This document shows positions 1,962 to 38,395 of a DNA stretch of 64,000 nucleotides, piece after piece. A program made the position numbers and the translations under genes. Source of the DNA: Shigella phage ShigP1; sequence record PQ818763; one strand, written 5' to 3'. Within the stretch, counting starts at the first letter, position 1, and every line of letters starts with the position of its first letter. A model generated the notes under the pieces. The model was not told where the DNA came from. It saw only the letters and a list, made by a program, of their open reading frames with translations, and ran no database searches.

Positions 1962-2103
1962 GAGGAGAGAAGAGGGCTTATTTAGCTACCTTTTTCTGTC
2001 CGTTTACGAACCAGATAATTGAACCGTCAGGCTGTCGTTGACCGAAGCCTTTCTGGTTAATCATATCGTCATAAGAATATGCTTTACGTCTCATTTGTTT
2101 TCC

Positions 2104-2358
2104 CTACGAAGTTAAGATGATTTCAGCCTTAATAAACTTCTCACCAACAACCATATCACCAGAGATGACACGTAGTTCTCCAGTGCCTAGGTTAACAGCT
2201 CCAGCAGGTTGACAACCCCTGCTTTTAGCTGTCATCATATAAACCTTTTGATTTTGGCACTCTTGGAGAGTGAACACATCTGACATATTTAGATCTCTGA
2301 CGCGGAGGATTTTTTCCTCTTTGTCTTTAACTTTAATGTTAATAATGCTCATATGCAC
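2104..2358 (-). CDS. small protein, paralog family 1
   Basis: ORF track; shares L-x-x-G-[DA]-V-F and C-x-[VA]-N-L-x-x-G motifs with 8 other ORFs in 2104-7748. Confidence 0.5.
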   Translation of the reverse strand: MHMSIINIKVKDKEEKILRVRDLNMSDVFTLQECQNQKVYMMTAKSRGCQPAGAVNLGTGELRVISGDMVVGEKFIKAEIILTS

Positions 2359-2603
2359 TACTCCTGAACCACTGACATACGAATCATTTCTACCTGATCA
2401 TCAAGACCTTTAACAGATAACACACCTGTGGAAAGGTTTACCACAGGAACCCAACCACTGGCTATACGGATGTTACCAGAAGCATTTTCAACCCTCATGT
2501 AATACTGAGGAGAGGCACTTCCGTTCTGAACCACGAAAGGGTTTCCGGGAATGATTGTTTCCAATCGTACCGTATTATCCTTTTTCTTTGGGATGATTTT
2601 CAT
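2358..2603 (-). CDS. small protein, paralog family 1
   Basis: ORF track; tandem with neighbours; VVNLSTG motif. Confidence 0.5.
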   Translation of the reverse strand: MKIIPKKKDNTVRLETIIPGNPFVVQNGSASPQYYMRVENASGNIRIASGWVPVVNLSTGVLSVKGLDDQVEMIRMSVVQE

Positions 2604-2851
2604 TGCGTATTATCCACCAAAAGTTCTGCTGATACAGGAACAACTCGGCACCAGATAGAAGGTGCTGTTACGTTACCATCGGATAGACGAAGAGTAATTG
2701 TTCGATCAGAGTTAACGGTTACATTAGGACTTTCAGACACAGACCCTTTAACATAGAGAGTAGCACTCTCAGGGAATTTAAACACTGCTCCGCTGGGGAG
2801 GGAGTTGAGATCAATCGTGGTCACTTCTTCTTTCTTGTGGGTAATCTTCAT
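2600..2851 (-). CDS. small protein, paralog family 1
   Basis: ORF track; LPSGAVFKF motif; start overlaps upstream stop. Confidence 0.5.
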   Translation of the reverse strand: MKITHKKEEVTTIDLNSLPSGAVFKFPESATLYVKGSVSESPNVTVNSDRTITLRLSDGNVTAPSIWCRVVPVSAELLVDNTQ

Positions 2852-3102
2852 TTAGAATCCTTAATAACGTTAGCTTCAACCTTAACAGGAATAACAGAGA
2901 TGCCCTCAACGGGGCCACTTAAGTGTCCATCTTCCAGTCTGACACACACGACTCGATCTCGTGCAACTTCTACCCAATTAGTAGATGCCGCAGTACAGAC
3001 CATATGAATTGGACCGTTCTCTTCCAGCCGGAAGGTATCGCCCTTCTTCAGAGTGTGGAGTTTCACAGTCTTGATAGTTTTGTTCAATTCGTTAACTTTC
3101 AT
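2848..3102 (-). CDS. small protein, paralog family 1
   Basis: ORF track; LKKGDTFRL motif. Confidence 0.5.
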   Translation of the reverse strand: MKVNELNKTIKTVKLHTLKKGDTFRLEENGPIHMVCTAASTNWVEVARDRVVCVRLEDGHLSGPVEGISVIPVKVEANVIKDSK

Positions 3103-3110
3103 ATTGATTC

Positions 3111-3422
3111 CTATTTAAGTTTGAGGCTAATGTTAAGGTGCATACATGCTCTGTTCTGTACAGCAGCATAACTTCTACCGAGCATGTCAGCCATTCTCTG
3201 AATAGACATGAACCCAGCATTACGGATAAGGAACTGGTCTTCTTCTTCAGACCATTTAACTCGGATTGAAGCTCTTGATATTCCGAATTTAGTACAAGCT
3301 GTGTTAACTGCATTCTCCGTTACATTCATAATCTGAGCAACTTCTTGAACCGAGTACTCTTTGATTAGTCTCCGAAGATTTTCAATCTGCATCGGAGTCC
3401 ATATAGTTCTTCGTGCTTTCAT
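3111..3422 (-). CDS. putative DNA-binding protein with two Myb/SANT-like helix-turn-helix repeats
   Basis: Two repeats of W-x(2)-E-x(2)-L ... hydrophobic helix (WTPMQIENLRRL...; WSEEEDQFLIRN...MADMLGRSYAAVQNR). Confidence 0.45.
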   Translation of the reverse strand: MKARRTIWTPMQIENLRRLIKEYSVQEVAQIMNVTENAVNTACTKFGISRASIRVKWSEEEDQFLIRNAGFMSIQRMADMLGRSYAAVQNRACMHLNISLKLK

Positions 3423-3450
3423 ACATCCTCCAATTAGCTATTATTCAATT

Positions 3451-3596
3451 TGGTTACAGGTGTAGGATTCGAACCTACGCTCGGACTCCCTAGCCATCAC
3501 CAAAGGAATGCATCCAATGGGCATACGGTCATTCGACCACGGGCGACTGCTTTACCGTAGACTCTGCATTACTGAGTCCCATAAGCTATACCTGTA
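3451..3596 (-). ncRNA. tRNA-like stable RNA (about 146 nt), non-canonical
   Basis: 3' end is a canonical T-arm GTAGG-TTCGAAT-CCTAC plus acceptor ACCTGTA-A-CCA; the complementary TACAGGT lies 146 nt upstream; internal region does not fold as a standard tRNA. Confidence 0.3.
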
Positions 3597-4087
3597 ATTA
3601 AAAGGTTGTTCCACATTTACCCTAAAGTTATTGGGGAGTACACTAGCTCTGGGCCACGCTGTAGATATCGGCCTACCTTCCACAGCTAATCAGCTAATGT
3701 ACTCTCCTAATAGTTTATGAATAGGGGGAGGGGACGAATCCTCCCTTATCCTATTAATTAATATTGCATGTAAGACCTAACAATCGGTTGCCTTTGTAGG
3801 AATAAGCGTTATGCTAATCCAGCACTAAACTCCCGCCCCCTTAGTGGGCTGGGTTATTAAAGGGTAACGCCCTTATGGGCTAGTTACATGAATGTTAGTT
3901 TGATAGGAGATCTGAAGTCCTATCTCAAAGGACTCTCGTAAGAATCCTTCACGATATTACTTATTCATCTCTCGTCGGCTATCTCTCCAAGCCAACCAAG
4001 TGTAGGTTTTCAGTTCTTCAAAGTCTTCTGGAGAGAATAGATACTCTTTGAAGGTATCACCAAACCACTTTAAAAATTCTTCAGTCA

Positions 4088-4345
4088 TTAGTCCTCATAC
4101 TTTTTGTTAGGAAGGATGAAATCCCAAAGAGCAGCCCATGATACGAGTGCTATAAATAGTACAGCAATAATAGGCCACAAGAAAACCATAGCTGCTATCT
4201 TTCCGAGGTCTGGCTCACCATCCCAACCTCTGAAACACTGATTACCTTTAACATCTATAATCTTAATCAGAACACCTGATACTACTGATCCTATCAGATA
4301 GGCTATTAACATACTAACAAGACTGGTCACAAGGTTGATCTCCAC
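4088..4345 (-). CDS. small membrane protein (two predicted transmembrane helices)
   Basis: ORF track; hydrophobic stretches LVSMLIAYLIGSVVSGVLI and AAMVFLWPIIAVLFIALVSWAAL. Confidence 0.5.
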   Translation of the reverse strand: MEINLVTSLVSMLIAYLIGSVVSGVLIKIIDVKGNQCFRGWDGEPDLGKIAAMVFLWPIIAVLFIALVSWAALWDFILPNKKYED

Positions 4346-4496
4346 ATGTTTTACAGATCACTGGTGAGTAACTACAGGCAGGGTATACTGACACTCCATC
4401 AAATGTCTCACACCCACAGTCAGGGCATGTACCATTGGATTCCATGTCGTCGTCATCACACACTTCACCGCCACCATAACAGCTCATATGAACTCC

Positions 4497-4718
4497 TTAG
4501 TAAACTAAACCTACAGCCTTAGCATCAGGCTGAGGGACTACCTTTGCGCTAGGGCGATAACCATCCACTGAACCGTTCCAAAGATTGACACAGGTGATAT
4601 ATCCATCGTCTATGATGTCTGTTTTAATCCAGAAGTGTTTATCATGACCAAAAATACTTCCGTTTGGCAGCGTGGACAGCTCAACGGTTTTAAGTGACTG
4701 CTTAGAGTCTAGTTTCAT
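4497..4718 (-). CDS. small protein, paralog family 1
   Basis: ORF track; LPNGSIF and CVNLWNGS motifs. Confidence 0.5.
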   Translation of the reverse strand: MKLDSKQSLKTVELSTLPNGSIFGHDKHFWIKTDIIDDGYITCVNLWNGSVDGYRPSAKVVPQPDAKAVGLVY

Positions 4719-4727
4719 ATAAGTTCC

Positions 4728-4925
4728 TTAATATACCAAACCATGTAAAAGAAACACCCTCTTTGTAAGCTCTGCTTTAGCTCTGTAATAAGCCTTAGAA
4801 CCTAACAGGCGGCTCTTAACAAAGAACTTAATGTCATTGCTAACATCTTGTATTAAACGCTCCTGTACAGCTTCTGAGGAGCTATTAATTGAATCAATTA
4901 ACACCTTTGTGGATGTGTAATTCAT
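4728..4925 (-). CDS. hypothetical protein (65 aa)
   Basis: ORF track only. Confidence 0.4.
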   Translation of the reverse strand: MNYTSTKVLIDSINSSSEAVQERLIQDVSNDIKFFVKSRLLGSKAYYRAKAELTKRVFLLHGLVY

Positions 4926-4926
4926 A

Positions 4927-5226
4927 TCACCACTCCTTACCGGTTGTTGTTACAGAGCCACCACACCACAACGCTGTATCAATCACAACATTGTCTGGCG
5001 TAGACTTCTCTTCGTTGATAGAAGGGTTAGCATTAGAACAGGTTGCTCCGTTCCATCGCATATCAATTTCACCAGAAGGAATCTTCTCACCCTTATACCA
5101 GCGAGAAACACAAACACCTTCCACTGCTACTGCACACCATCCATCAGGACGGCTCTGTACGCAGCCTGTAAGGGCTATGCAGACAAGGAAGATACAGATT
5201 AAGGATATTACACCACCCCAACTCAT
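4927..5226 (-). CDS. putative lipoprotein (Cys-rich)
   Basis: N-terminal hydrophobic signal ending in lipobox-like LTGC; mature part Cys-rich. Confidence 0.5.
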   Translation of the reverse strand: MSWGGVISLICIFLVCIALTGCVQSRPDGWCAVAVEGVCVSRWYKGEKIPSGEIDMRWNGATCSNANPSINEEKSTPDNVVIDTALWCGGSVTTTGKEW

Positions 5227-5245
5227 AATTACCTCCTATTAGATT

Positions 5246-5340
5246 TGGTGGACTATCTGGAATCGAACCAGAAGCTCACTAAGAAAGTAATTCCCACTGT
5301 TATAAAAGCACTTGCCTCAACAGGGATACACTAACTCTGG
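5246..5340 (-). other. tRNA-like remnant (T-arm and acceptor 3' strand only)
   Basis: TCTGG-TTCGATT-CCAGA T-arm followed by TAGTCCA-C; no matching 5' acceptor strand within 100 nt. Confidence 0.25.
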
Positions 5341-5366
5341 TGCCGCACCCATACTAGCCCTAAATG

Positions 5367-5442
5367 TGGTGCGCCCTACAGGACTCGAACCTGTAACCAA
5401 TAGCTTAGAAGGCTACTGCTCTATCCATTGAGCTAAGAGCGC
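5367..5442 (-). tRNA. tRNA-Arg (anticodon UCU)
   Basis: Hand fold: acceptor GCGCTCT/AGGGCGC, D-arm GCTC-AATGGATA-GAGC, anticodon stem GTAGC/GCTAT with loop CTTCTAA, T-arm ACAGG-TTCGAGT-CCTGT, discriminator A, encoded CCA; 76 nt. Confidence 0.8.
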
Positions 5443-5622
5443 AGAATTATTTAGATCATATCTCGCTTGGTGATATGACCACATGTTTTACATCGAAGTA
5501 TATAACGAGTACCTGTGTCTTCTATTTGACCAATCTCATTATATATGTGTAAACGAACTTCTTTTATTGTCTCCCAATCATGGAGATGGAAGAAACGTTT
5601 AAACCACTTGAACATAATAACC

Positions 5623-5874
5623 TCAAGCACAAGCAGGGAGTGTGATGATTTTATACTGACCATCAAACTCACTAAACAAACCCAAGAATGTAGGACTGTA
5701 AGTACCAGTACAAACAAACTCATCAAACAGTGCGTTATAACTAGGCTTGATCTTCCAAGCCCATACATATCCCATCTTGTCAATTGCAATATAACGAGTG
5801 TTCAGAGGAACAGCCATCATCACATCATTAACTGCAATCACTTTAGTTATTGGTGCAGCTTGGAAGTTTTTCAT
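5623..5874 (-). CDS. hypothetical protein (83 aa)
   Basis: ORF track; start overlaps stop of upstream gene. Confidence 0.45.
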   Translation of the reverse strand: MKNFQAAPITKVIAVNDVMMAVPLNTRYIAIDKMGYVWAWKIKPSYNALFDEFVCTGTYSPTFLGLFSEFDGQYKIITLPACA

Positions 5875-6095
5875 CCTACTCTCCTAACGTTTAGGGTAGC
5901 TTGATAAAATTTGACAGGACAACTTCTGTCAAACGTAAATCTTGTTTCAGGATTATTTATACAGATAGCATGTCTGTGCATAACCTTCATATATAAAGGA
6001 GGTTTTGTATCCCCATCTATCTCTAGAGAGAACACATCACCATTACGGAGGCTACCAAAAGTGTTATCTTTAGGCTCAGAGCGAACGATAATCAT
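5871..6095 (-). CDS. small protein, paralog family 1
   Basis: ORF track; LRNGDVFSL motif. Confidence 0.5.
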   Translation of the reverse strand: MIIVRSEPKDNTFGSLRNGDVFSLEIDGDTKPPLYMKVMHRHAICINNPETRFTFDRSCPVKFYQATLNVRRVG

Positions 6096-6311
6096 ACTTT
6101 ACCTTTGATAAAAATATCATTACCACAGACACAGCATGAACGAACAACAGTAGCGCCACGCTGAACGATACGAACCTCTTCCTTAACCAGACTAATACGA
6201 GCACCGCAGCAAGGGGAGTTGACATAAGAGTAACCAGCTTGCGTATGTTTGATTGTTTGCTTAGACATTTTAGCTTCCTCTTGTTAGTTTAAGTAAGAGT
6301 TGTCCCTTAAT

Positions 6312-6341
6312 TAAAACAACAAAGGCCGCCCGAAGGCAGCC
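6312..6341 (-). terminator. rho-independent terminator (minus strand)
   Basis: Hairpin GGCTGCC-TTCG-GGCGGCC followed by TTTGTTGTTTT on the minus strand, just after the stop of 6347-6598. Confidence 0.55.
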
Positions 6342-6346
6342 TCTCT

Positions 6347-6598
6347 TTATTGACTCACACCACGAATCAGATGATTCTGTAGCGTACCGTCTTCTGCATT
6401 ATACAGGAATGCGAACATCAACTCCTTAGCCACATCTCTTGAGCAATTAAGACACTTAGAGATTTGAGTTAGTTGCATGTTACGTTCAGTGTGTTCCATC
6501 AAGGCAATGCGAATGATCTCTCGCATACCTATTACATGAACTGTTTTAACCGGCATAGGTCCAATTACCTTGCTTGTTACGAATGGCTGACATTGCAT
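6347..6598 (-). CDS. hypothetical protein (83 aa)
   Basis: ORF track only; start codon uncertain. Confidence 0.4.
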   Translation of the reverse strand: MQCQPFVTSKVIGPMPVKTVHVIGMREIIRIALMEHTERNMQLTQISKCLNCSRDVAKELMFAFLYNAEDGTLQNHLIRGVSQ

Positions 6599-6934
6599 GA
6601 ATCCAGAAGCCTTCCAGTTTCAGAGCACCATTAGCTACTGCATCCATACGTTCAGGGCGGTTCATACGTTTGGTTGATACTTTCATACCTATCTCTCTTT
6701 GTTAGTGGAGGCATTATTGCCAGTTGATATAAGGGATAGCCCTAGTCAGTAGACTAATCCTGACCGCGTACTCATTGCCGACCTTCTCTGCCTAAGAGTT
6801 CAGGTTCTAGAGCTATCTCTTATTCCAACTGGTGAAGACTCCCTACCCCTAGGAAGTCTCCTGAATCCCAAACCAATATGTACCCCTACATATTAGAAAG
6901 TCTTTTCGAAAATTAACAGGTTTTAGTCTAACAC

Positions 6935-7050
6935 CGGATGTTCGAGCAAGCTCTCCCTAGCGGTGTGGCATATGCCTGAATTAATAAGTTAATGAGGAAC
7001 ACCCTCACATAGCCCTCTGATAAACACAAGGGCTATAAGTCGGTGTTACT
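6935..7050 (-). repeat. conserved intergenic structured element, copy B
   Basis: Second copy of the 1298-1418 element; hairpins TGAGG/CCTCA and ATAGCCC/GGGCTAT covary with TGAGT/ACTCA and ATAGCC/GGCTAT in copy A. Confidence 0.55.
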
Positions 7051-7264
7051 TTTGGGATAAACACAGATCAGGACGGGGCATAACAGTGGTTGATAAACCG
7101 AAGACTTCAACAGAACCACTGCTCAAGTTAGCAGCCTTACACAAACCATCAGGGGTTTTATCTTCTAACATCAGCCAGAAACGTCTGTCGTAAGAGAAAA
7201 CATCACCACTTTTAATATCTTCTGCATTTGCATATTTAGGATAATCAACTACTTTAATTTCCAT
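7046..7264 (-). CDS. small protein, paralog family 1
   Basis: ORF track; IKSGDVFSY and ANLSSGS motifs. Confidence 0.5.
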   Translation of the reverse strand: MEIKVVDYPKYANAEDIKSGDVFSYDRRFWLMLEDKTPDGLCKAANLSSGSVEVFGLSTTVMPRPDLCLSQK

Positions 7265-7522
7265 CTACTTGCCCTTGTTAGTAATAACAACATCATGAAG
7301 AAGAACAACCTTGCTTTTCGAGCTAAGCTTAAGGACTTGCTTATTTGTCAGACTAAGGACGACACAACCACCATCAGAAGGCTTGGTCTCTTCAATCTGT
7401 GGGGTAAACAGCTGAACAACCATGTAGAAATCTGCTCGTGTTTCTCTGATTTGGAATACATCTCCAAGTTTGAGATCACCAACACACAAAGACGGTTCAT
7501 TTACTTCAAGATTAATCTTCAT
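7265..7522 (-). CDS. small protein, paralog family 1
   Basis: ORF track; LKLGDVFQI motif. Confidence 0.5.
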   Translation of the reverse strand: MKINLEVNEPSLCVGDLKLGDVFQIRETRADFYMVVQLFTPQIEETKPSDGGCVVLSLTNKQVLKLSSKSKVVLLHDVVITNKGK

Positions 7523-7748
7523 CTTTAGCCTCTATATTAGTTATGTGGAGATCGCTGCGTACTTGGCAGACTTCATCCCGTTTAAAAGGCATGAGCTTTC
7601 CAGTTACCACATCAACACAGTTGACATAATTGTCTGCGTACAATGTGTCGGTTCTAATGTAAAGGGATTCTTTACGCTCAAACAGAACGCCCGGCTTCAT
7701 GTTGTTTAATCGAAGCATTGTACGATCGGATTTAATATTAACTTTCAC
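7512..7748 (-). CDS. small protein, paralog family 1 (GTG start proposed)
   Basis: Track ORF 7512-7856 trimmed to a GTG at 7746-7748 preceded by AGGAG; resulting N-terminus KVNIKSD... matches family member MKVNELNK...; MKPGVLF and CVDVVTG motifs. Confidence 0.4.
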   Translation of the reverse strand: MKVNIKSDRTMLRLNNMKPGVLFERKESLYIRTDTLYADNYVNCVDVVTGKLMPFKRDEVCQVRSDLHITNIEAKDED

Positions 7749-8034
7749 TGTTAATCTCCTGCTGCTTAGCAATAGCCGCTCGCAAGTCTTCATTAGCACG
7801 AGCAAGGCGCAACACTTCATGATTGAGGTTCTGAAGACGTTTGTTTCTGTCTTCAACTTGCATAATAAGATCGTTGAGTGTTACTTTAACTTTCTCATTA
7901 TACATCTCATCCACTCGAACTAGGGATTTATACATTCTTTCCCAGCTTGCTGCTTTATTTCTGAGAATAATAAATCCTAGAACGCTGATAGTTAAACAGC
8001 TTACAAAAAGGAATTTATATACTTCTAAAGTCAT
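7738..8034 (-). CDS. membrane-anchored coiled-coil protein (Rz/i-spanin-like architecture)
   Basis: N-terminal transmembrane helix FLFVSCLTISVLGFIIL followed by heptad-like charged region. Confidence 0.4.
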   Translation of the reverse strand: MTLEVYKFLFVSCLTISVLGFIILRNKAASWERMYKSLVRVDEMYNEKVKVTLNDLIMQVEDRNKRLQNLNHEVLRLARANEDLRAAIAKQQEINSES

Positions 8035-8234: not shown

Positions 8235-8624
8235 TTATTCCCTAGAGCTATTATCGAACACTAAATCACCACAATACATAGGATTGGCATACCATTTTGG
8301 CACCCCTTCGCTCTTACTCTGAAAGTAAGTCCCACTGTACAGCGGAACATAATTCTTCTTAAGGGCACGTTTAGCAAGTCGCTCGCTTTCTCCAATGGCT
8401 TGCTTAGTCATCGGATTTTTATCACGAATCAGCTTTACATAACGTTTATAAGGTTTCTCCTGTTTTAATAGTACCGGAATCCACTCAAACTGGTTCTTTT
8501 GTCTTATCACCTGTTCAGCGGTCAGTTTTCGTTGGGCCATTCTATTTATCACGGTATCCGCAACTAAAGCCTTACATGCGGTTGGCTGATTCCCTGCCTC
8601 ATAATAAATAGTCAATGTCAACAT
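8235..8624 (-). CDS. cell-wall hydrolase, SleB/CwlJ (Hydrolase_2) family
   Basis: Motifs YYEAGNQPTACKALVADTVINR and QFEWIP resemble the SleB/CwlJ catalytic core. Confidence 0.55.
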   Translation of the reverse strand: MLTLTIYYEAGNQPTACKALVADTVINRMAQRKLTAEQVIRQKNQFEWIPVLLKQEKPYKRYVKLIRDKNPMTKQAIGESERLAKRALKKNYVPLYSGTYFQSKSEGVPKWYANPMYCGDLVFDNSSRE

Positions 8625-8734: not shown

Positions 8735-9636
8735 TTACCACTCGTAACTTACACCAGCGCCCAGAACAGCGTCACTCTCTGAAGTCATTGCCACTGATGC
8801 TTTAGTTACTACGTTTTCATTGAAACGAGCACTAACACCAATAGCAAGAGCAGATTCACCATCGTAAGCACCTACCCCAGCACCAACAGAGAAAGCAGAT
8901 CCTTGACTTACTTGCGGGATGTTAGCCATTGCAGCCACGCCAGAAATACCAGCAGAGGCATGATCACGGTTACGGTCTACTTGTTTTTGCAAAGAAGCAA
9001 AACGTTTGTTGGTGGATTGTTCCAGAGCTTTGATAGATTTGGCGTTAGCATTAACGGCAGACATATCTGCATCTTTACCATTTTTGCCATTTAATCCGTC
9101 AACGCCATTCAAACCTGCTGCACCAGTTAGGCCAGTTTCGCCTTTCTTACCATCTGCACCAGAATCACCTTTTTCACCTTGAGCGCCATCTTTACCATCA
9201 ATGCCATCTTTACCATTGATGCCATCTTTACCATCAATGCCATCTTTACCATCAATGCCATCTTNNNNNNNNNNNNNNNNNNNNNNNNNNNNNNNNNNNN
9301 NNNNNNNNNNNNNNNNNNNNNNNNNNNNNNNNNNNNNNNNNNNNNNNNNNNNNNNNNNNCAATGCCATCTTTACCATCAATGCCATCTTTACCATCAATG
9401 CCATTAGTACCATTGATGCCAGCCGATCCAGTATCACCTTTTAAGCCCTGCTCTCCGCGATCACCCTTGTCACCTTTCGGACCTTGTTCGCCTTGAATAC
9501 CCTGTTCTCCTTTATCACCTTTCGGCCCCTGCTGGACTTCACACTGTTTAGAGTGTGAGCATTTGTCAGAATGAGCAAAGGATGGGGCACTAATGGCAGA
9601 TAAAACTAGAATAGCTGACAATGCAAATGCTTTCAT
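8735..9636 (-). CDS. secreted collagen-like protein with YadA-type C-terminal anchor (trimeric-autotransporter-like); interrupted by assembly gap
   Basis: Signal peptide MKAFALSAILVLSAISAPSFA; G-X-Y triplets on both sides of the N-run; (IDGKDG)n encoded by an 18-bp tandem repeat; C-terminus GISGVAAMANIPQ...VGAGVGAYDGESALAIGVSARF...LGAGVSYEW matches the YadA anchor pattern; track ORFs 9127-9708 and 8735-9112 are the two halves put out of frame by the gap. Confidence 0.6.
9185..9410 (-). repeat. 18-bp tandem repeat (CATTGATGGTAAAGATGG on the coding strand) with N-run 9265-9359 inside
   Basis: At least 4 copies left of the gap and about 3 right of it; the gap is flanked by identical repeat units. 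Confidence 0.85.
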
Positions 9637-9661
9637 TTCATGGTTTCCTATATAATAGATA

Positions 9662-9717
9662 CAAAAAAGCCTCCAATTAAGGAGGCGGTAACGCAAAAAG
9701 CCGCCCAAAGGCGGCTA
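9662..9717 (-). terminator. tandem rho-independent terminators (minus strand)
   Basis: Hairpins AGCCGCC-TTTG-GGCGGCT and GCCTCC-TTAATT-GGAGGC, each followed by a T-run on the minus strand. Confidence 0.6.
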
Positions 9718-13729: not shown

Positions 13730-13935
13730 GCGAACGTGATACATCATAGGAAAAGGCTTGTAAAGCGATAACAAGCGGCCTATAACGCATCACAATGAGC
13801 TAAAAGGGAGTAAGGTATACAATCACCTTAGAAAAGAAAAAAGCCTCATAGCGAGGCTTATAGGAAGGATTTAAAGCATCAGATAGATTATGACCATAGG
13901 CATGACTACGGCACAATACAGGAGAAAGATTAAGC

Positions 13936-14301
13936 CTATGGATTTACACATTGACCATTACCGGACTCAATTTCATTCATGGACTCATCAAAGAGCGTCA
14001 ACGATGAGCGCATCAAGTGATCTATCGTGATTTGTTTACCGGTAGTTTCATTTACCAGCAGAATAGCTTTGTTATCTGATTGCACATGATCAAAATCATT
14101 TACATGCAAAATAATAACTTTAGGTGACTGTTTACCAGTTTCGTAATTCTCTACGAGATAGGTACACTGTAAACCGTCAACCGTATCAGGGGAGAATGTT
14201 GCAGCCTTAACGCTACCCATAGATGACAGCAGGACACCTAACAGGAGAACAACCAGAAAGAAGCCTACAAATACTTTCACTACAAACTTGATAACACCCA
14301 T
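13936..14301 (-). CDS. putative secreted or membrane protein (121 aa)
   Basis: N-terminal hydrophobic segment FVGFFLVVLLLGVLLS. Confidence 0.5.
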   Translation of the reverse strand: MGVIKFVVKVFVGFFLVVLLLGVLLSSMGSVKAATFSPDTVDGLQCTYLVENYETGKQSPKVIILHVNDFDHVQSDNKAILLVNETTGKQITIDHLMRSSLTLFDESMNEIESGNGQCVNP

Positions 14302-14396
14302 GATAATAAACCTTTAGTTAGAGAATGTAAGAATACAGCATATCAGCAATGAACAGCAGGAAGGTCGCACCAAACAAGCAACGCCAAAAATAATCA

Positions 14397-14672
14397 CTAT
14401 TCATCGTTGCTATTCTCGCCAAAAAATGCTACGCTAATCTGTTCCACTTCTTCCAGCGACAGGAGAATCCCGCGTTGGGCTAAATACTTCCCAACAGTTA
14501 GATAATCTTGCACTAAACAGACAATAGGAAAGCGTATGTTTTGTATCTCACCTTTAGAAAGAAAAGACAAATAACCAGCGTCGACTGATTCATCAAAGGA
14601 CAATGTAACGCCACCGTAATTATGCGTATCAATTAACGCAATAGTTTCATTTCCCATTGGTATCATCCCCAA
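14397..14672 (-). CDS. hypothetical protein (91 aa)
   Basis: ORF track only. Confidence 0.4.
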   Translation of the reverse strand: MGMIPMGNETIALIDTHNYGGVTLSFDESVDAGYLSFLSKGEIQNIRFPIVCLVQDYLTVGKYLAQRGILLSLEEVEQISVAFFGENSNDE

Positions 14673-14913
14673 TCAGACCATGATTAAGCAGGTTAGCCAG
14701 CGACAAATCACCGTCAATATAGATTGATCTGAAATCATCGCGGGTAATTTCGAAATCAGCAAAGGCTAGCCAATCTTTAAGAGGCTGATATTCCATCCTG
14801 CAAAAAGTGATAACAGGCAAGATTATCTGACCATCAAGTGTATTAAACTCGATAGATTGCCCACCAACAAAACAAGAAAAGCCGTTTGATAACTTAACTT
14901 CTTTGATAGCCAT
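14647..14913 (-). CDS. hypothetical protein (88 aa)
   Basis: ORF track only. Confidence 0.4.
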   Translation of the reverse strand: MAIKEVKLSNGFSCFVGGQSIEFNTLDGQIILPVITFCRMEYQPLKDWLAFADFEITRDDFRSIYIDGDLSLANLLNHGLIGDDTNGK

Positions 14914-14938
14914 TTTTACACTCCTGAAAATAGGTTAT

Positions 14939-15811
14939 TTACTTACTAGCCTTAATACAGTTGGCTAAACTAACGTGAACGGTATAAACAGCGTTATTAG
15001 CGTTATTGTAAACAGTGGTAGCAATCATCGACTCATTGATCGGGCCATAACTCACTAGATTGGTTACAGCTTTAACGTCTTCGTAACGTTGTACAGTGCC
15101 AAATGTAACCATATCCGAGTCACTATCGGTGCGCTTGAGAACTAGATCATTGTTAGGCTGATTGTCTAGTGTCTTAGACTGAAAGAGAACGCCATCATTA
15201 GTTACGTTGCTAAACTTCATTTTTAATACAATAGTACTTCCATCACTATCCGCACCGTTGCAAATCATCCAACCCTTATTGATGGAACTAGAGAAGACAC
15301 TAGCGGCATCAGTTGCAGGAGTAGAACTAGCGATAGCTTTATCAGAAAGAGATGTGACCAGTGCACTAACACCGATCGCTGCAACCAGTGCATAACTTGC
15401 CAGATTAACAGACTTCATAATCTTACTTGCAACAGTAGGCTTGATTGGCTGTTTCTTGTTTTTCTTATTCCATGCTTCAACCATGACAGACAAGCGGGAT
15501 AATTCAGCTTTCACATCGCGGCATGACTCAGGCCAATCCTTCTGATTCCAGCTATCTAAATTTGCTTGAATGTAGCAATTAATAGCGTCCTGCATATTGG
15601 TAAAACCGTTCTCTTTGAACGTGCTTTCATCTTCACACTGTAAAGCGTTCGCAGTAGAGTTAATGATCAAGCAAGCCAGCATTACAGAGTTTTTGAATCC
15701 TTTACGTGCACTTTCGTTTTCCATCCACGCATCAGGACTACCAACGGTTAAGCCTAAAGAGGAAAGGCTTTCGTTTGCTTTGTTCAAGTGGTTAATCGCT
15801 ACTTTAGACAT
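14939..15811 (-). CDS. hypothetical protein (290 aa), first gene of the leftward block
   Basis: ORF track; internal hydrophobic helix ASYALVAAIGVSALVTSL. Confidence 0.5.
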   Translation of the reverse strand: MSKVAINHLNKANESLSSLGLTVGSPDAWMENESARKGFKNSVMLACLIINSTANALQCEDESTFKENGFTNMQDAINCYIQANLDSWNQKDWPESCRDVKAELSRLSVMVEAWNKKNKKQPIKPTVASKIMKSVNLASYALVAAIGVSALVTSLSDKAIASSTPATDAASVFSSSINKGWMICNGADSDGSTIVLKMKFSNVTNDGVLFQSKTLDNQPNNDLVLKRTDSDSDMVTFGTVQRYEDVKAVTNLVSYGPINESMIATTVYNNANNAVYTVHVSLANCIKASK

Positions 15812-16404
15812 TTGATATTCCTTATGGTTGATGAAAACTACAAACTACAATCGCAACTATATAATAAAGGAAAAGGCTGTCAACCATTTATTTTCTAACT
15901 TTCCTATAACTCACTGAAAACTAAAGGGATTTAATTTACTAAACTTTCCATACTCAGAGAATCAGCTTACTTCTTATTGTTACTTTATAACACTACGGGT
16001 AACAGACCAACAGATCAGGACAAACGGGGATACAACAACCGCAGAACAGACCACGGGGAAACATAGGCAGATAGTGCGGTAGTAATATACCACTTAAATA
16101 ATTGTATAACTCAAACATCAAAGACGTTCGCTACGCTCACAAAGGCACGCTGAAAAAAGAAAAGAATAAAAGCAATTATTAAAAGAATTACAATCATCCA
16201 CTTAATTAATACATATATCATTATTGCACTCATAATCATTACTATTGAAACTATTTACATTCAAACTATGGGGGATGTGGGCTATTACTTATGGGTATTA
16301 TTAGCCTCTTATGGTAGTGCCTGTACTAGTTTATACAGTGCTAGCCTTTCTCTCACTCTTTAAAGGGGAACTAAATAAACGGGTAGCTAATGAATAGGAT
16401 GGTA

Positions 16405-16456
16405 TACACGGGGGAATAATTACGGGGAGTAGGCACGGGGAAAGGTGGAACGTGGG
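16405..16456 (+). repeat. G-rich direct repeats (ACGGGG x3, ACGTGGG x1) in the divergent intergenic region
   Basis: Copies at 16408, 16422, 16435, 16450, spaced 13-15 nt. Confidence 0.6.
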
Positions 16457-16594
16457 AATGGGCTTAAAGGCATTGCCAATAACCCTTTTTTTAAATGAGG
16501 ACTCCCCCTTTTTAGGAAACGCGCGGCGAGCGGCTAGCCCCATTCGGTCAAATCAGAATTTTAAACTCTTATATATAAGGTTGAAAGAGAACTT

Positions 16595-16759
16595 ATGTGG
16601 AAAATTAAGTTAATCATTAAGCAATTCAAATGTGATCATGAGTACTATCGGATACGCAAAGCTTACGGGGATGAAAGAGTTCACACCCTTTATAAGTCCA
16701 CTTGGAGATGTAGTAAATGTGGAAAGCTTAAACACAGCACATGGATGGATAGGCCTTAA
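16595..16759 (+). CDS. small zinc-ribbon-like protein (54 aa), first rightward gene
   Basis: Hand-translated (below the track length cut-off): MWKIKLIIKQFKCDHEYY...WRCSKCGKLKH...; frame checked from ATG 16595 to TAA 16757-16759. Confidence 0.35.
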   Translation: MWKIKLIIKQFKCDHEYYRIRKAYGDERVHTLYKSTWRCSKCGKLKHSTWMDRP

Positions 16760-16800
16760 CGTGACATGGCCTTTATGTGATAGTGCCTTAATGTGAAGTA
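16753..16800 (+). repeat. three tandem 16-bp repeats GCCTT(T/A)A(T/C)GTGA
   Basis: Copies at 16753, 16769, 16785; degenerate copies near 16818, 16934, 16961. Confidence 0.55.
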
Positions 16801-16993
16801 GTCATCAAAGATGACGTCCCCTTTATGTCTTAACTTTATCAGAGGGATGTATGACAGAAGATGAATACGGTAGCTTCTCTGAAGAAGACTACGAAAATGA
16901 ATACAGGTATTCTCACGGGTGTTAATGTGAGGTGGCCTTTACGGGTATGTCTTATGATGTGCCCTTTATACTCTTATTCAGAGGAGAAGAATT

Positions 16994-17248
16994 ATGAATT
17001 TAGTATTAGACTTTTTATCAGAGATGGTGCCTCGGTTCAGAACGGAGACATACGCTTTCGTGGTCAACAGTGACTCTGAAGAAGGGATGGAAGCTACTTG
17101 CTTAGGCCGTCTTGTTGATTTAGATGATGAAACAGATTTCGATATTACAATTGATGTAAGTAGTTTTGGTTGGCTCTTCTTCAGAGCATTCCGCACTTAC
17201 AGAAAAGAAACATACAAAGATTACAGCAAGGGAGATACAAATGAATAA
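16994..17248 (+). CDS. hypothetical acidic protein (84 aa)
   Basis: ORF track; GGAGAAG ribosome-binding site. Confidence 0.45.
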   Translation: MNLVLDFLSEMVPRFRTETYAFVVNSDSEEGMEATCLGRLVDLDDETDFDITIDVSSFGWLFFRAFRTYRKETYKDYSKGDTNE

Positions 17249-17873
17249 TTTAATCCAAGCGATGGACCTTAACGATTACAATTCACAGCTATGTCGCTCT
17301 GGTTGTAGCTTACAGCATTTAGAAACTATGGGAAATGTTTCAGGATTGGCTGTACAAGATTTATATAGTGGAAGTATTCTTAAACCAACTATTACGGAGA
17401 AGAAAGATATGATGAGTTTAGTAGAACAATACCGTGGACTTCAAGTCGGTACTATTGGTGATAAATATGAGAACTACTACAAAGATCGCTCAAAAGTACT
17501 TGAAGAAGTTGCACGGGCTAAGCCTTCTACTCTGGAAGTAGTTGAATACGAATCTACTAAACATGATCACCTCCCTGACTATGCTCGTGCAATGATTGAG
17601 ATGATTGAAGAAGCTGAATACGAAATGCTCCATGATTATATTACCTCCAAAGATGAATGGCATCGTGATGTTAGAATCGAAGAGGATGGTACAGAAACAA
17701 TTACGTGGATTCACAAGAGTGAGCTAGTAGACGACGCACTGCGAGACTACGAAAAATTTTTGGTCGACGGCTCTATTCTTTTAGAGGAAGAGAAGGGTGC
17801 AGAACTTCCGTGGGAAGGTGAGACGATTGCTCTAGGTAAGATGTTTAACCTGTCCGTTGGTGATTGTAAGTAA
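17241..17873 (+). CDS. hypothetical protein (210 aa)
   Basis: Track ORF 17166-17873 trimmed to ATG 17241, preceded by AAGGGAG and overlapping the upstream stop. Confidence 0.5.
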   Translation: MNNLIQAMDLNDYNSQLCRSGCSLQHLETMGNVSGLAVQDLYSGSILKPTITEKKDMMSLVEQYRGLQVGTIGDKYENYYKDRSKVLEEVARAKPSTLEVVEYESTKHDHLPDYARAMIEMIEEAEYEMLHDYITSKDEWHRDVRIEEDGTETITWIHKSELVDDALRDYEKFLVDGSILLEEEKGAELPWEGETIALGKMFNLSVGDCK

Positions 17874-17878
17874 TATTT

Positions 17879-17902
17879 GCCTCCATTGGGAGGCTTTTTG
17901 TG
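17879..17902 (+). terminator. rho-independent terminator
   Basis: GCCTCC-ATTG-GGAGGC followed by TTTTTGTG. Confidence 0.6.
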
Positions 17903-17929
17903 TTGTTGATAATGTAGAAGGAGTATAAA

Positions 17930-18403
17930 ATGTTTGGAGAAAACGGAGAACTCACGCCTGCACAGGTAGCTGAGATTACAGGAAGATTACCCGGAGTAAC
18001 GGAAGAACTCGAAAGCCGTGGTATGAACCCAAGCAATGGGAAGTTTCAAAAGGGAAATAAATTCGGACGACCCAGAGGTAGTAGAGGTAAACTGACACAA
18101 TTAATGTTGGACCGTGTTGCTGCAAGTCATTTGTCTCCTGATGAAGTGTTAATTCAAATTTACGAAGATCCTAATATTCCACCCGATCTTAGATTCAAGG
18201 CTGCATCAAAAGTTGCAGATCTGGTATATCCTAAGGCGGCCTCTGTTGAAGTTAAGATTGAGGAAGAGAATGTAATCAACGAAGAATCACTGAATGCACA
18301 AATCAAGGACTTCTTGACTGGAGCACTTGGTGTTGACGTTATGCCTCCAGAAGAAGATAACTCTGAGGACGCTGAAAAGGGGGAGGAAGCGGACGAGAGT
18401 TAA
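17930..18403 (+). CDS. putative terminase small subunit
   Basis: Immediately upstream of the large terminase; basic Gly-rich N-terminal segment KGNKFGRPRGSRGK typical of small-terminase DNA-binding regions; acidic C-terminus. Confidence 0.45.
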   Translation: MFGENGELTPAQVAEITGRLPGVTEELESRGMNPSNGKFQKGNKFGRPRGSRGKLTQLMLDRVAASHLSPDEVLIQIYEDPNIPPDLRFKAASKVADLVYPKAASVEVKIEEENVINEESLNAQIKDFLTGALGVDVMPPEEDNSEDAEKGEEADES

Positions 18404-18564
18404 GTAAAGGAAACAGGGAGCTGTCGAAGATCATCTGATTAATAATCTGAGGATTGTTATAGTTTTATTGCCACGATGTTCTTTTGCAGTGTACCCTTGT
18501 AGTGGAGAGGGGAGGTTCTTTGACGAAGGGACTTTCCCTTTTCTATTTTTAAACTGGAGGAAGT

Positions 18565-20106
18565 ATGTCATTAGATAAACAAATTTATGAAGCTCTAACT
18601 GGTAACAACCTTAGTGTAGAGGAAAAGAAAGCACTATTGAATATGTTGAAAGAGCGTGACCAATGGAGGAAGTATAATAAGATTTTGTCTTTCAAGGCGT
18701 ATGACTTCCAAAAGAAATTTTATGCAGCAGGATTGAAGCATCGCTTTAGATTCTTGTGTGCAGCGAACCGTGTTGGTAAATCTTATAGCGAGGCATACGA
18801 GTTTGCTTGTCATGTCACAGGTCGCTACCCAACTTGGTGGACAGGGTATAAATTTAAAAGACCTATCTTAGCATGGGCAGTTGGTATTACAGGGGATTCC
18901 ACAAGGAAAGTATTGCAAAAGGAGTTGTTTGGTACACCTATCGGAAAGGATACAAATTTATTAGGGACAGGTGTCATTCCTCGTGATGCTATCGTCATTG
19001 ACACGATAGAACGAGATGGTAACAAACTTCAAATCGTACAAATCAAACATCAAAACGAAAGAGGAGAGTTTGACGGTTTAAGTACATTAGAATTCCGTTC
19101 AACCCAACAGGGTGAACACACATTGATGGGTGCAACAGTTGACTACATTTGGTTAGACGAAGAAGATCCATACGAGTCTATGGCTATATTCGCACAGTGC
19201 GTCACACGTACACTCACAACTAAAGGTCTAGTTACAATTACAGCTACACCAGAGAACGGTTTAACTGAACTGGTAGATAAATTTATGAAAGGTGAAGGGG
19301 ATGAGAACACAGGTTCTCTATATTTCCAGAACGCTTCTTGGTGGGATGCTCATGCAGACCTAGGTGGACACATCACTGACCAAGATATAAAAGATATGAC
19401 TGAAGGTATTCCAGCGTGGCAGTTAGAGATGCGTTCGAAAGGTATGCCATTGTTAGGAAGTGGTTTGATTTATGATGTATCGGATGACACAATTAAATGT
19501 GAACCATTCGAAATTCCTGATACGTGGAAACGTGTCTGTGCAATTGATATTGGTATTGATCACCCAACTGCTGCTGTTTGGACAGCTTACGATGCAAACA
19601 CGGATACTATCTATGTTTACGACTCATATAAAGAAGGTGGCTTTACTCCAGTGTATCATGCTCCAGCTATTAATGGTCGTGGTCAGTGGATTCCTGTCAT
19701 CCTACCGCATGATGCGGACAATATTGAGAAAGGTAGTGGTTCATCTGTTGCTCAATTCTATAAGAATGCAGGAGTTAACGTACAGAGTGAGACCTTCTAC
19801 AACAAAATTGGAATGGATGGTAAAAAGAACTTCTTTGTAGAACCCGGAATCACAGATATCCGAGAAAGAATGATGAGTGGACGCTTTAAAATCTTTAACA
19901 CAGCTGCTAACGCTAAGCTATTCGAAGAGAAAGCTAGATATCACCGTAAGGTTGGTAAGATTATTAAAGAACATGATGACTTAATGGATGCAATGCGCTA
20001 TTCAGCGTGCTCTGTTACACATCGTGGTCGCTCTAAACATGACGTTAGCTACGGAAGTGCTTCTCTGTATGAGGCAAACGTAAGCAGATGGAATCAGAGT
20101 TACTAA
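18565..20106 (+). CDS. terminase large subunit
   Basis: Walker A-like CAANRVGKS, Walker B-like DYIWLDEED, nuclease-domain acidic motifs (AIDIGIDHP, LPHDAD); 513 aa. Confidence 0.8.
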   Translation: MSLDKQIYEALTGNNLSVEEKKALLNMLKERDQWRKYNKILSFKAYDFQKKFYAAGLKHRFRFLCAANRVGKSYSEAYEFACHVTGRYPTWWTGYKFKRPILAWAVGITGDSTRKVLQKELFGTPIGKDTNLLGTGVIPRDAIVIDTIERDGNKLQIVQIKHQNERGEFDGLSTLEFRSTQQGEHTLMGATVDYIWLDEEDPYESMAIFAQCVTRTLTTKGLVTITATPENGLTELVDKFMKGEGDENTGSLYFQNASWWDAHADLGGHITDQDIKDMTEGIPAWQLEMRSKGMPLLGSGLIYDVSDDTIKCEPFEIPDTWKRVCAIDIGIDHPTAAVWTAYDANTDTIYVYDSYKEGGFTPVYHAPAINGRGQWIPVILPHDADNIEKGSGSSVAQFYKNAGVNVQSETFYNKIGMDGKKNFFVEPGITDIRERMMSGRFKIFNTAANAKLFEEKARYHRKVGKIIKEHDDLMDAMRYSACSVTHRGRSKHDVSYGSASLYEANVSRWNQSY

Positions 20107-20167
20107 AGTAAGGGGGAGGTTTGTCCTCCCTTCTTTTATTTAAGCTATCAACCGAGGGAGAGAATCG

Positions 20168-22411
20168 ATGGCTAAGCAAAAATATAGTGAAGAGGTGTTG
20201 GACGAGTTACGTGTTGACCTTCAACGTCGTTTTAATTATGCTCAAGGCTACGTGGACATGGCTGTTAAGGGCTATGCTCGTGAAGCTTGGGAATATTTCT
20301 ATGGTAACTTACCTGCACCAGTAACTGCTGGCAGCTCTAGTTGGGTAGATCGTACTGTTTGGGAATCTGTTAACGGTACATTGCAAGATATTATTAACGT
20401 ATTCTGTTCTGGTGATGAAGCAGTTACTTTCGTAGCTGACAACCAACAGGATTCTGATGCTGCTGACGTAGCAACTAAATTAGTTAACCAAATTCTTCTG
20501 CGTGATAATCCGGGATACAATATTATCTCTTCTGCTGCACAAGAATGTCTGGTTACTCGTAACTCTTTTATCAAGTATTATTGGGATGAACAAACTTCTA
20601 CTCAAACTGAAGAAGCTGAAGGTGTACCACCGGAAGCATTGGCTGCATATGTTCAGGGATTAGAAGCTGGTGGACTCAAGAATCTGGAAATCTTCACTGA
20701 AGAAAATGAAGATGGTACAGTAGATGTTAAAGTTACTTACGAACAAACCGTTAAACGTGTGAAAGTTGAATATGTTCCTTCAGAGCAAATCTTTGTTGAC
20801 GAACATGCTACCTCTTTTGCAGATGCACAATACTTCTGTCATCGTGTACGTCGTTCTAAAGAAGATCTGGTTGCTATGGGATTCCCTAAAGATGAGATTG
20901 AAGCATTTAACGACTGGACAGATACAATGGATACCACTCAATCTACAGTTGCTTGGTCTCGTACTGACTGGCGTCAGGATATTGATGCTGATATTGGTAC
21001 AGATACCGAAGATATCGCTTCTATGGTTTGGGTTTATGAGCACTATATTCGTACTGGTGTTCTAGATAAGAATAAAGAGTCTAAACTCTATCAGGTTATT
21101 CAAGCTGGTGAGCATATCCTTCACACTGAAGAAGTAACTCACATTCCGTTTGTAACCTTCTGCCCGTATCCGATTCCGGGTTCCTTCTATGGTCAATCGG
21201 TCTATGACATTACGAAAGATATTCAAGATTTACGTACCGCGTTAGTTCGTGGTTATATTGATAACGTCAACAATGCTAACTATGGTCGATACAAGGCTCT
21301 TGTTGGTGCATACGACCGTCGCTCTCTGCTTGATAACCGTCCCGGTGGAGTGGTTGAAATGGAACGTCAGGACGCTATTGACCTGTTCCCATACCATAAC
21401 CTACCTCAAGGTATTGACGGCCTCCTAGGCATGTCTGAGGAGCTTAAAGAGACACGTACAGGTGTAACCAAACTAGGCATGGGTATCAACCCTGATGTGT
21501 TTAAGAATGATAACGCTTATGCAACCGTAGGCTTGATGATGAATGCTGCACAGAACCGTCTCCGTATGGTATGTCGTAACATTGCTCACAATGGTATGGT
21601 TGAATTGATGCGTGGTATTTACAACCTTATCAGAGAAAATGGTGAAGTTCCTATCGAGGTACAAACCCCTCGTGGTATGATTCAGGTAAATCCAAAACAA
21701 TTACCAGCTCGTCACAATCTTCAAGTTGTTGTAGCTATCTCTCCTAACGAGAAAGCAGAACGTGCACAGAAACTGATTAGCTTGAAACAGCTGATTGCAG
21801 CAGATGCACAGTTAGCACCTCTCTTTGGTTTGGAGCAAGACCGTTACATGACTGCACAGATCTTTGAGTTGATGGGTATTAAAGATACTCATAAATATCT
21901 TCTGCCTCTGGAACAGTATCAGCCTCCAGAACCTTCTCCGATGGAAATCCTCCAGCTCGAGATGACTAAAGCACAGGTTGAGAACGTACAGGCTTCTTCT
22001 CAGAAGATGATTGCTGATGCATTCGACCAACGTGAACGTACTACATTCGAACAGCAGAAAGCTGCGGATGAATTAAGTCTACGTCAGGAAGAGTTGCAAT
22101 TCAAGCAAGAAAATGCAGCAGATGCAATGACTCTGGAAAACCGTAAAGAAGATAACAATGCTACTCTGGAACAAGCTAAGCACAAGTTAGCTCTTATGCA
22201 ACAGCAGGTCCGTCAGTATGAATCTGTACTGAAAGAATTGCAGATGGTTATGTCTCATCAGGTAGACCAAGAGAAGATTGTTCAGCAAGCTCGTGTTCAG
22301 GATAAAACTTTGGAACTCCAAAAGAAAGAAGCTAATGTAACTAAGAAAGAGCAACAAGCTTCTCTCAAAGATTCACGGATTCCAGGCAAACGTCTTGGAA
22401 GTAAAAACTAA
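20168..22411 (+). CDS. portal protein
   Basis: 747 aa ORF directly after the terminase; position and size; C-terminal coiled coil. Confidence 0.65.
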   Translation: MAKQKYSEEVLDELRVDLQRRFNYAQGYVDMAVKGYAREAWEYFYGNLPAPVTAGSSSWVDRTVWESVNGTLQDIINVFCSGDEAVTFVADNQQDSDAADVATKLVNQILLRDNPGYNIISSAAQECLVTRNSFIKYYWDEQTSTQTEEAEGVPPEALAAYVQGLEAGGLKNLEIFTEENEDGTVDVKVTYEQTVKRVKVEYVPSEQIFVDEHATSFADAQYFCHRVRRSKEDLVAMGFPKDEIEAFNDWTDTMDTTQSTVAWSRTDWRQDIDADIGTDTEDIASMVWVYEHYIRTGVLDKNKESKLYQVIQAGEHILHTEEVTHIPFVTFCPYPIPGSFYGQSVYDITKDIQDLRTALVRGYIDNVNNANYGRYKALVGAYDRRSLLDNRPGGVVEMERQDAIDLFPYHNLPQGIDGLLGMSEELKETRTGVTKLGMGINPDVFKNDNAYATVGLMMNAAQNRLRMVCRNIAHNGMVELMRGIYNLIRENGEVPIEVQTPRGMIQVNPKQLPARHNLQVVVAISPNEKAERAQKLISLKQLIAADAQLAPLFGLEQDRYMTAQIFELMGIKDTHKYLLPLEQYQPPEPSPMEILQLEMTKAQVENVQASSQKMIADAFDQRERTTFEQQKAADELSLRQEELQFKQENAADAMTLENRKEDNNATLEQAKHKLALMQQQVRQYESVLKELQMVMSHQVDQEKIVQQARVQDKTLELQKKEANVTKKEQQASLKDSRIPGKRLGSKN

Positions 22412-32509: not shown

Positions 32510-32518
32510 GGAGGAATT

Positions 32519-35536: not shown

Positions 35537-35540
35537 CAAC

Positions 35541-35569
35541 AAGGGGCTTCGTGCCCCTTTTATTGTTTT
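35541..35569 (+). terminator. rho-independent terminator or attenuator
   Basis: AAGGGGC-TTCGT-GCCCCTT followed by TTTATTGTTTT. Confidence 0.55.
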
Positions 35570-35579
35570 GGAGGAACTT

Positions 35580-36548: not shown

Positions 36549-36549
36549 T

Positions 36550-37581: not shown

Positions 37582-37593
37582 CAAGGAGATATT

Positions 37594-38376: not shown

Positions 38377-38395
38377 TAATCGTTAAGGAGGACTT

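Follow-up and report, generated by a model that had tools for sequence, protein, structure and literature searches.

Why would a phage keep nine small genes of one kind within a few kilobases of its early region, and what could their products do there? The question is raised by Shigella phage ShigP1, of which we analysed 64,000 nucleotides of DNA (sequence record PQ818763; hereafter, the window). An original prediction, made from the sequence of the window, had placed nine paralogous small open-reading frames (ORFs) between positions 2104 and 7748, and had suggested that the amplification of one small fold in an early-gene region provides a diversified set of host-interaction or anti-defence specificities. 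Our results establish that the nine ORFs, designated p1 to p9 by increasing coordinate, are true paralogs belonging to one family, and that each copy is a maintained gene under purifying selection. Models of two members predict an SH3-like small beta-barrel, and we hold with moderate confidence that these early-expressed, individually conserved barrels are best explained as non-enzymatic binding modules with separate targets.

The nine ORFs are present where they had been placed, all on the minus strand, and they encode 72-85 amino acids (aa), a narrower range than the 63-85 aa originally proposed. Pairwise BLASTP comparisons among them are significant for p3-p4, p5-p7 and p5-p9 only; since most pairs are non-significant, profile methods were used. 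When each paralog was compared with a hidden Markov model (HMM) of the other eight, it matched with an E-value between 2e-10 and 3e-3 in searches of all 368 window ORFs, while the best non-family ORF reached an E-value of at least 0.014 and none of 500 shuffled sequences attained the observed score. An independent HMM of 95 distant relatives, from which the nine paralogs and any sequence at least 35% identical to them had been excluded, picks out exactly these nine ORFs (E 6e-17 to 2e-7), the next ORF of the window following at 0.45. Aligning each ortholog-group profile to the distant profile with hhalign yielded probabilities of 96.4-99.4% over the full length. The weakest member, p6, is nevertheless clear on all three measures (leave-one-out E 0.003, distant-profile E 2e-7, hhalign 96.4%). 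The paralogs share 14-28% identity in the multiple alignment, rising to 36% over the best local alignment, and constitute full-length, end-to-end matches to seven PHROGs (E 1.5e-26 to 3.7e-49) that show weak cross-matches to one another. The statistical standing of the shared motifs, on which the original prediction was staked, is thus upheld by the leave-one-out models, the shuffles and the independent profile alike. Its count of at least nine copies is exact for the window, where family profile searches found no tenth.

The nine paralogs share the signature [LIM]-x-x-[GS]-x-x-F, followed by [YWH]-[MIVL], a V-N-L-x-x-G-like segment and V-x-P/V. The proposed motif L-x-x-G-[DA]-[VT]-F captures a signature that does exist, but as written it is too loose, a single Phe alone being invariant among the nine. 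The accompanying claim that the proteins usually start with MK holds for five of them as ATG-encoded M-K, or six if p9, with its K after a GTG start, is counted; the rest differ. Across the family as a whole, the conserved elements are an N-terminal M-K-[IV], a G-D-V-F turn, [YW]-M-K-T, V-N-L-x-x-G and V-x-P-V. N-terminal residues apart, these conserved positions sit in predicted strands or in the tight turns between them (G-D-V-F, N-L-x-x-G); the rest of the sequence varies, including the hairpin that connects strands 3 and 4, which differs between members in both sequence and length. The family alignment shows no conserved set of polar or metal-binding residues.

AlphaFold2, supplied with family alignments, produced confident all-beta models for p4 (predicted local distance difference test, pLDDT, 86.3) and p5 (pLDDT 86.6, with the core above 95). 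Both models give one fold, an SH3-like (Tudor/KOW-like) small beta-barrel in which about 60 residues supply the five or six antiparallel strands characteristic of this class, so that the notion of a single amplified fold agrees with the structure predictions. Sequence databases offer no name for it: the nine paralogs and ten distant members lack any Pfam match at E ≤ 1, the KOW, EFP_N and Ribosomal_L2_C models included, and neither an NCBIfam search with 104 members nor a PDB sequence search with two family profiles returned anything meaningful.

Positions 2000-8000 of the window match Kuravirus/Gordonclarkvirinae podophages, among them SU10, SkaterBoy_Bas90, DE5 and phiEco32, over 76-88% of their length at 90-97% identity, and the genome is of the Kuravirus (phiEco32/SU10-like) type. 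Eight of the nine paralogs have counterparts in phiEco32, every one annotated as a hypothetical protein (Table 1). The back-to-back array with overlapping stop and start codons is likewise as anticipated, and a Shine-Dalgarno-like site lies 5-10 nt upstream of each of the nine genes. Translation of p1 probably begins at the ATG at 2352, which gives 82 aa, and not at the GTG at 2358; its PHROG match sets in at residue 3, and the annotation of phi32_95 has the same start. The start of p9, at 7748, falls within a longer ORF.

Table 1. Coordinates of the nine paralogs, the tRNA gene among them and the promoter-like sites facing the cluster
Feature	Position	Strand	Length (aa)	Description
p1	2104..2358	-		ortholog of phi32_95; phrog_12612; final gene of four-gene tandem array
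p2	2358..2603	-	81	ortholog of phi32_96; phrog_7431
p3	2600..2851	-	83	ortholog of phi32_97; phrog_7832; shares ATGA with p2
p4	2848..3102	-	84	phrog_7832; shares ATGA with p3; structure modelled
p5	4497..4718	-	73	ortholog of phi32_104; phrog_6570; most typical copy; structure modelled
tRNA-Arg(UCU)	5367-5442	-		single tRNA gene, within the paralog cluster
p6	5871..6095	-	74	ortholog of phi32_109; phrog_10911; most divergent copy
p7	7046..7264	-	72	ortholog of phi32_113; phrog_6570
p8	7265..7522	-	85	slot of phi32_114; phrog_9955; abuts p7 with zero spacer
p9	7512..7748	-	78	GTG start; ortholog of phi32_115; phrog_16423; 11-nt overlap with start of p8
Promoter-like site	12916-12888	-		TTGACA-17-CATAAT; near-consensus sigma70, facing the cluster
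Promoter-like site	13549-13521	-		TTGACA-17-TATAGT; near-consensus sigma70, facing the cluster

Several lines of evidence place the paralogs among the early genes, as originally proposed. In phiEco32-like genomes this region belongs to the early class; promoters where the cluster begins direct its leftward transcription, which is carried out by the sigma70 RNA polymerase of the host (PMC8948821, PMC4281155). Both sigma70-like sites of Table 1 lie in the spacer where the early promoters of phiEco32 and SU10 have been reported (PMC4281155, PMC8948821). In phage PaP3, whose ORF65 belongs to the same family (see below), ORF57-71 are expressed under chloramphenicol and are experimentally early genes (PMC4707531). 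A correlation between PaP3 ORF65 and rpoS expression was also considered and discarded as too weak. Within the leftward early unit, strong terminator-like hairpins were observed on the minus strand at 11044-11017, 9716-9699, 6344-6321 and 1923-1898; the scan returned 22 sites in 15 kb over both strands, where shuffled sequences lead one to expect 10.3 ± 3.0. These hairpins suggest that early transcripts are segmented or that antitermination is required.

The repertoire differs markedly between related phages. In a census of some 13-20 kb of early region from nine of them, family copies number three in LAMP, six in PKM.Hi.22.6, eight in MN05 and SR02, nine in phiEco32 and SU10, ten in Ptacy1479 and NJ01 and eleven in EP335. 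Proteins in the same slot share 42-100% identity, while the DNA of the region is mostly 80-99% identical between genomes. The p8 product is 100% identical to its SU10 counterpart and 59% to that of phiEco32; p1 is 100% identical to phiEco32 and SR02 and 51-58% to EP335, Ptacy1479, MN05 and NJ01; p5 spans 42-100% identity across 71 records; and the p4 slot in phiEco32 is occupied by a different, p6-like family member (phi32_98). Each paralog nonetheless forms its own ortholog lineage, with the reading frame intact in approximately 70 phage records, and the pairwise ratio of non-synonymous to synonymous substitution rates (dN/dS) against orthologs is 0-0.35 in every paralog, with a value of 0.44 in one near-identical p5 pair; between divergent alleles, dS is saturated. 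It follows from the low dN/dS and the mosaicism of slots that the copies are maintained, and that their diversity stems from the exchange of old alleles by recombination, together with gain and loss, rather than from detectable gene-wide positive selection. The idea of a diversified set is borne out in this sense, each of the divergent copies being under purifying selection within a repertoire of changing size and content.

How far does the family extend? An HMM search of 1.84 billion cluster representatives returned 2,019 at E ≤ 1e-3, so that, counted as clusters at 50% identity, the family comprises about 2,000. Nearly all of these representatives are stand-alone proteins of 65-90 aa that match end to end, and a few contain the domain twice. 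A second, word-indexed search added few new members. One 902-aa protein with seven matching stretches (P0124) was disregarded, as it looks like a low-complexity repeat false positive. A Foldseek search against predicted viral structures led to proteins of N4, PaP3 and phages of Proteus, Serratia, Klebsiella, Dickeya, Erwinia, Vibrio and Pectobacterium, nearly all of which carry the label "uncharacterised". N4 gp21 (E 2e-17) and PaP3 ORF65 (E 1e-10) are members by sequence as well, and their predicted structures agree (Foldseek probability 1.00, template-modelling score about 0.7). Two further distant members, each present once and surrounded by small ORFs, come from contigs (67 and 228 kb) with the appearance of large phage genomes. 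The family is divided among at least nine PHROGs, namely 12612, 7431, 7832, 6570, 10911, 9955 and 16423, plus 8365 and 34455, all of unknown function. A tblastn search of phage genomes with the family consensus returned five records only and is too insensitive to describe the distribution. PaP3 (Bruynoghevirus; 32292-38613) and the Kuraviruses (SU10 13870-20219) also have in common a block of amidoligase, glutamine amidotransferase and COOH-NH2 ligase genes beside their early small-ORF regions; both encode the barrel family as well, and the barrel is encoded by N4.

Outside phages, the family leads to bacterial SprT-like metallopeptidases. In a 478-aa protein from a Tenacibaculum metagenome-assembled genome (P0116), five barrels are arrayed in tandem behind a SprT-like peptidase domain (PF10263). 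PF10263 is present in 69 of 73 matches, which are mostly Flavobacteriaceae SprT-like proteins of 180-201 aa with the barrel at the C-terminus; the ordinary form, of about 197-200 aa and known from Tenacibaculum, Cellulophaga and Sediminicola, has one copy. Against these relatives, the five copies in the Tenacibaculum protein are an unusual repeat expansion for a bacterial protein. Alignment of the phage family with the SprT C-terminal domain by hhalign gave a probability of 96.8% (E 3e-10, 49 columns), and a reversed-sequence control gave 0.3%. Profile comparison shows homology between the phage family and the domain found at the C-terminus of SprT-like metallopeptidases in Flavobacteriaceae. 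The relationship is confined to this accessory domain, as none of the nine paralogs matches PF10263, the HExxH zincin domain that defines SprT-like peptidases. It also spans a difference in context and charge, for the SprT C-terminal domain is chromosomal, fused to a protease and has a mean net charge of +4.9, whereas the stand-alone phage members have no protease domain and a mean of -3.5. The nine paralogs themselves carry net charges between -2.5 and +2.7 at pH 7, with isoelectric points of 4.9-9.2.

These properties bear directly on the role of the paralogs. Because conservation is concentrated in strands and turns, and because no conserved polar or metal-binding constellation accompanies it, the paralogs are most likely binding scaffolds and not enzymes. 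Their targets are more likely to be proteins than nucleic acids, since the stand-alone phage members are neutral to acidic while the SprT domain is basic. Under the model we put forward, each paralog would engage, early in infection and one to one, a target of its own among the host proteins, or possibly among those of the phage, and the repertoire would serve host takeover or counter-defence as a set of interchangeable accessories. Service in either process is plausible for such candidate binders and consistent with the data.

Some observations pull against this model of separate binders. No family member has an experimental function or a known partner, the fold is a generic one, and the sole domain fusion, to an SprT-like protease, hints at nucleic-acid or substrate binding instead of counter-defence. 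The dN/dS values lack the gene-wide positive selection to be expected of an active arms race. Distant members are single-copy in other phages, and amplification is therefore a feature of this lineage and not intrinsic to the family. In phiEco32 infection, moreover, only gp36 and gp79 reportedly co-purify with the host RNA polymerase; the polymerase is therefore an unlikely stable target, and binding to it through a CarD/UvrD-CTD-like barrel was judged unlikely as a specific mechanism.

Two other specific mechanisms were set aside. The first casts the barrels as EF-P-like substrates of the amidoligase/RimK-like enzymes annotated downstream in SU10, LAMP and NJ01, and also in PaP3; it was rejected because conservation is lowest in the hairpin that corresponds to the modified loop of EF-P. 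The second is DNA mimicry of the anti-restriction type (Ocr/ArdA), for which a strongly acidic surface would be expected, against the near-neutral net charges of the nine paralogs. A more ambitious version of the binding-module reading starts from the BASEL study, which found Gordonclarkvirinae "remarkably resistant" to restriction-modification and to most tested defence systems without known inhibitors (PMC11990801). The barrel set, with its 3-11 recombining copies, might then be a combinatorial library of protein inhibitors, with one host immunity or housekeeping target per allele, that explains this resistance. We regard the proposal as speculative and rather improbable; if true, the barrels would represent a new and widespread class of phage counter-defence scaffold, with N4 gp21 among its members and about 2,000 clusters in all.

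Of the explanations that compete with protein-binding modules, the one that fares best is that the paralogs are small proteins that bind DNA or RNA, as KOW, PWWP, L2 and EF-P domain I do, and thereby influence the nucleoid of the host, its transcription or its translation, as has been proposed for T4 MotB against H-NS. Other SprT/Spartan proteins carry a DNA-binding module at the position of the C-terminal domain discussed here, and this strongly basic homologous domain presumably binds DNA or RNA too. Phage T4 MotB, an early KOW/SH3-like DNA binder, offers a precedent (PMC7827196). The phage proteins fit poorly, however: the nine are near neutral, the family mean is negative and a net charge of at least +3 occurs in just 1% of members, the basic SprT hairpin aligns with the most variable and non-basic phage segment, and KOW and other such Pfam models go unmatched even at an E-value of 1. 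We consider nucleic-acid binding unlikely, if still deserving of attention.

A counter-defence variant holds that the paralogs are antitoxin-like neutralisers, each directed against its own toxin or abortive-infection effector of the host, as VapX is against VapD. Early expression and a variable repertoire would suit such a function, but the likeness to VapX is at fold level only (12-18% identity) and dozens of unrelated SH3-like domains score equally well. Nor does a cognate toxin adjoin the paralogs, whose neighbours include family members and other small ORFs, in an inspection that involved no systematic toxin search. This makes an antitoxin-like role quite improbable.

Redundancy, in which the copies are duplicates kept for dosage or decaying debris without individual function, could draw on the tandem layout with its translational coupling and on relatives such as LAMP that need just three copies. 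It is very hard to reconcile with the low identity between paralogs, even over local alignments, with separate lineages whose dN/dS is low and whose frames are intact, and with ribosome-binding sites in all nine, and we give it little credence. That the shared motifs reflect chance similarity among short ORFs, as the many non-significant BLASTP pairs might have suggested, is refuted by the leave-one-out models with their shuffles, the distant profile, the hhalign probabilities and the same predicted fold obtained twice, leaving this option a negligible probability.

The surroundings of the paralogs contain several further features. A 98-aa ORF immediately upstream of p9 (7738-8034, minus strand) is called a DNA helicase in RefSeq and in phrog_12154; the label is likely a propagated annotation error, because the product is far too short and has no Pfam match. 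Two Cys-rich mini-ORFs with CxxC pairs, of 57 and 58 aa (4314-4487 and 6092-6268, minus strand), are interspersed among the paralogs and lack Pfam matches; they are possibly zinc ribbons. A 129-aa early-region ORF (8235-8624, minus strand) matches Pfam Hydrolase_2, a SleB-type cell-wall hydrolase (E 2e-7), which is unexpected among early genes. The early-region ORF at 8735-9708 (minus strand) combines a signal-peptide-like N-terminus, Gly-X-Y collagen-like repeats and a C-terminal YadA-like anchor (PF03895, E 5e-20), the architecture of a trimeric autotransporter; RefSeq names its ortholog a tail protein. The product might be made by the infected cell and placed on its surface, for instance for superinfection exclusion. 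The repeat of this ORF is interrupted by 95 masked bases (9265-9359), and a second run of 96 N interrupts a gene at 27743-27838.

Paralogous pairs of other kinds occur elsewhere in the window. Two adjacent small ORFs at 57422-57706 and 57708-57962 (minus strand; 94 and 84 aa) are 56% identical over 41 aa and both belong to phrog_6814, of unknown function, and the adjacent genes at 38396-39448 and 39461-40429 (plus strand) are 32% identical over 274 aa and both belong to phrog_4287, annotated as a DNA ejection protein.

The individual genes are already on record, listed as hypothetical proteins and under separate PHROGs, and the published accounts consulted on SU10, phage 7-11, Kuravirus taxonomy and BASEL make no mention of their paralogy. 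What appears to be new is the unification of the nine into one superfamily, the assignment of a predicted SH3-like barrel fold, the inclusion of N4 gp21, PaP3 ORF65 and the SprT C-terminal domain in the same family, and the variation of the repertoire between 3 and 11 copies in related phages. As a consequence, about nine of the roughly 60 early genes of a phiEco32-like phage, all of them hypothetical, collapse into a single family and fold, and the same family covers N4 gp21, PaP3 ORF65 and some 2,000 further clusters that have no Pfam, NCBIfam or PDB entry. It thereby provides a functional entry point, in that one structure, one pull-down protocol or one deletion series would address many orphan genes together. 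Natural variation supplies ready comparisons through differing copy number and allele swaps between near-identical phages (e.g., BASEL Bas90 vs Bas91), and the SprT C-terminal domain adds a second, bacterial context for what the barrel binds. Should the paralogs prove to be counter-defence or host-takeover binders, they would form a sizeable new class; otherwise they constitute an ordinary though large family.

Comparison with known systems helps to delimit the family. EF-P/eIF5A domain I, the SH3-like domain of L2, Tudor/PWWP, KOW, the C-terminal SH3 of DtxR, FeoA and CarD/UvrD-CTD resemble the modelled barrel in fold only (2-20% identity), and the KOW or aromatic-cage signature of other SH3-like barrels is absent from the phage paralogs. 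VapX, the antitoxin of the VapXD system, is likewise SH3-like and has no sequence similarity to them. T4 MotB offers a parallel: it is early and non-essential, contains a "translation-protein SH3-like" domain, binds DNA and alters H-NS binding (PMC7827196). Compared by domain architecture alone, MotB consists of two domains, predicted as KOW/SH3-like and OB-fold, whereas the ShigP1 proteins are single barrels of 72-85 aa. Within the family, N4 gp21 and PaP3 ORF65 are single-copy in their own genomes, in contrast to the nine copies found here, and the PHROGs that stand as separate, unannotated families are brought together as one superfamily with one predicted fold.

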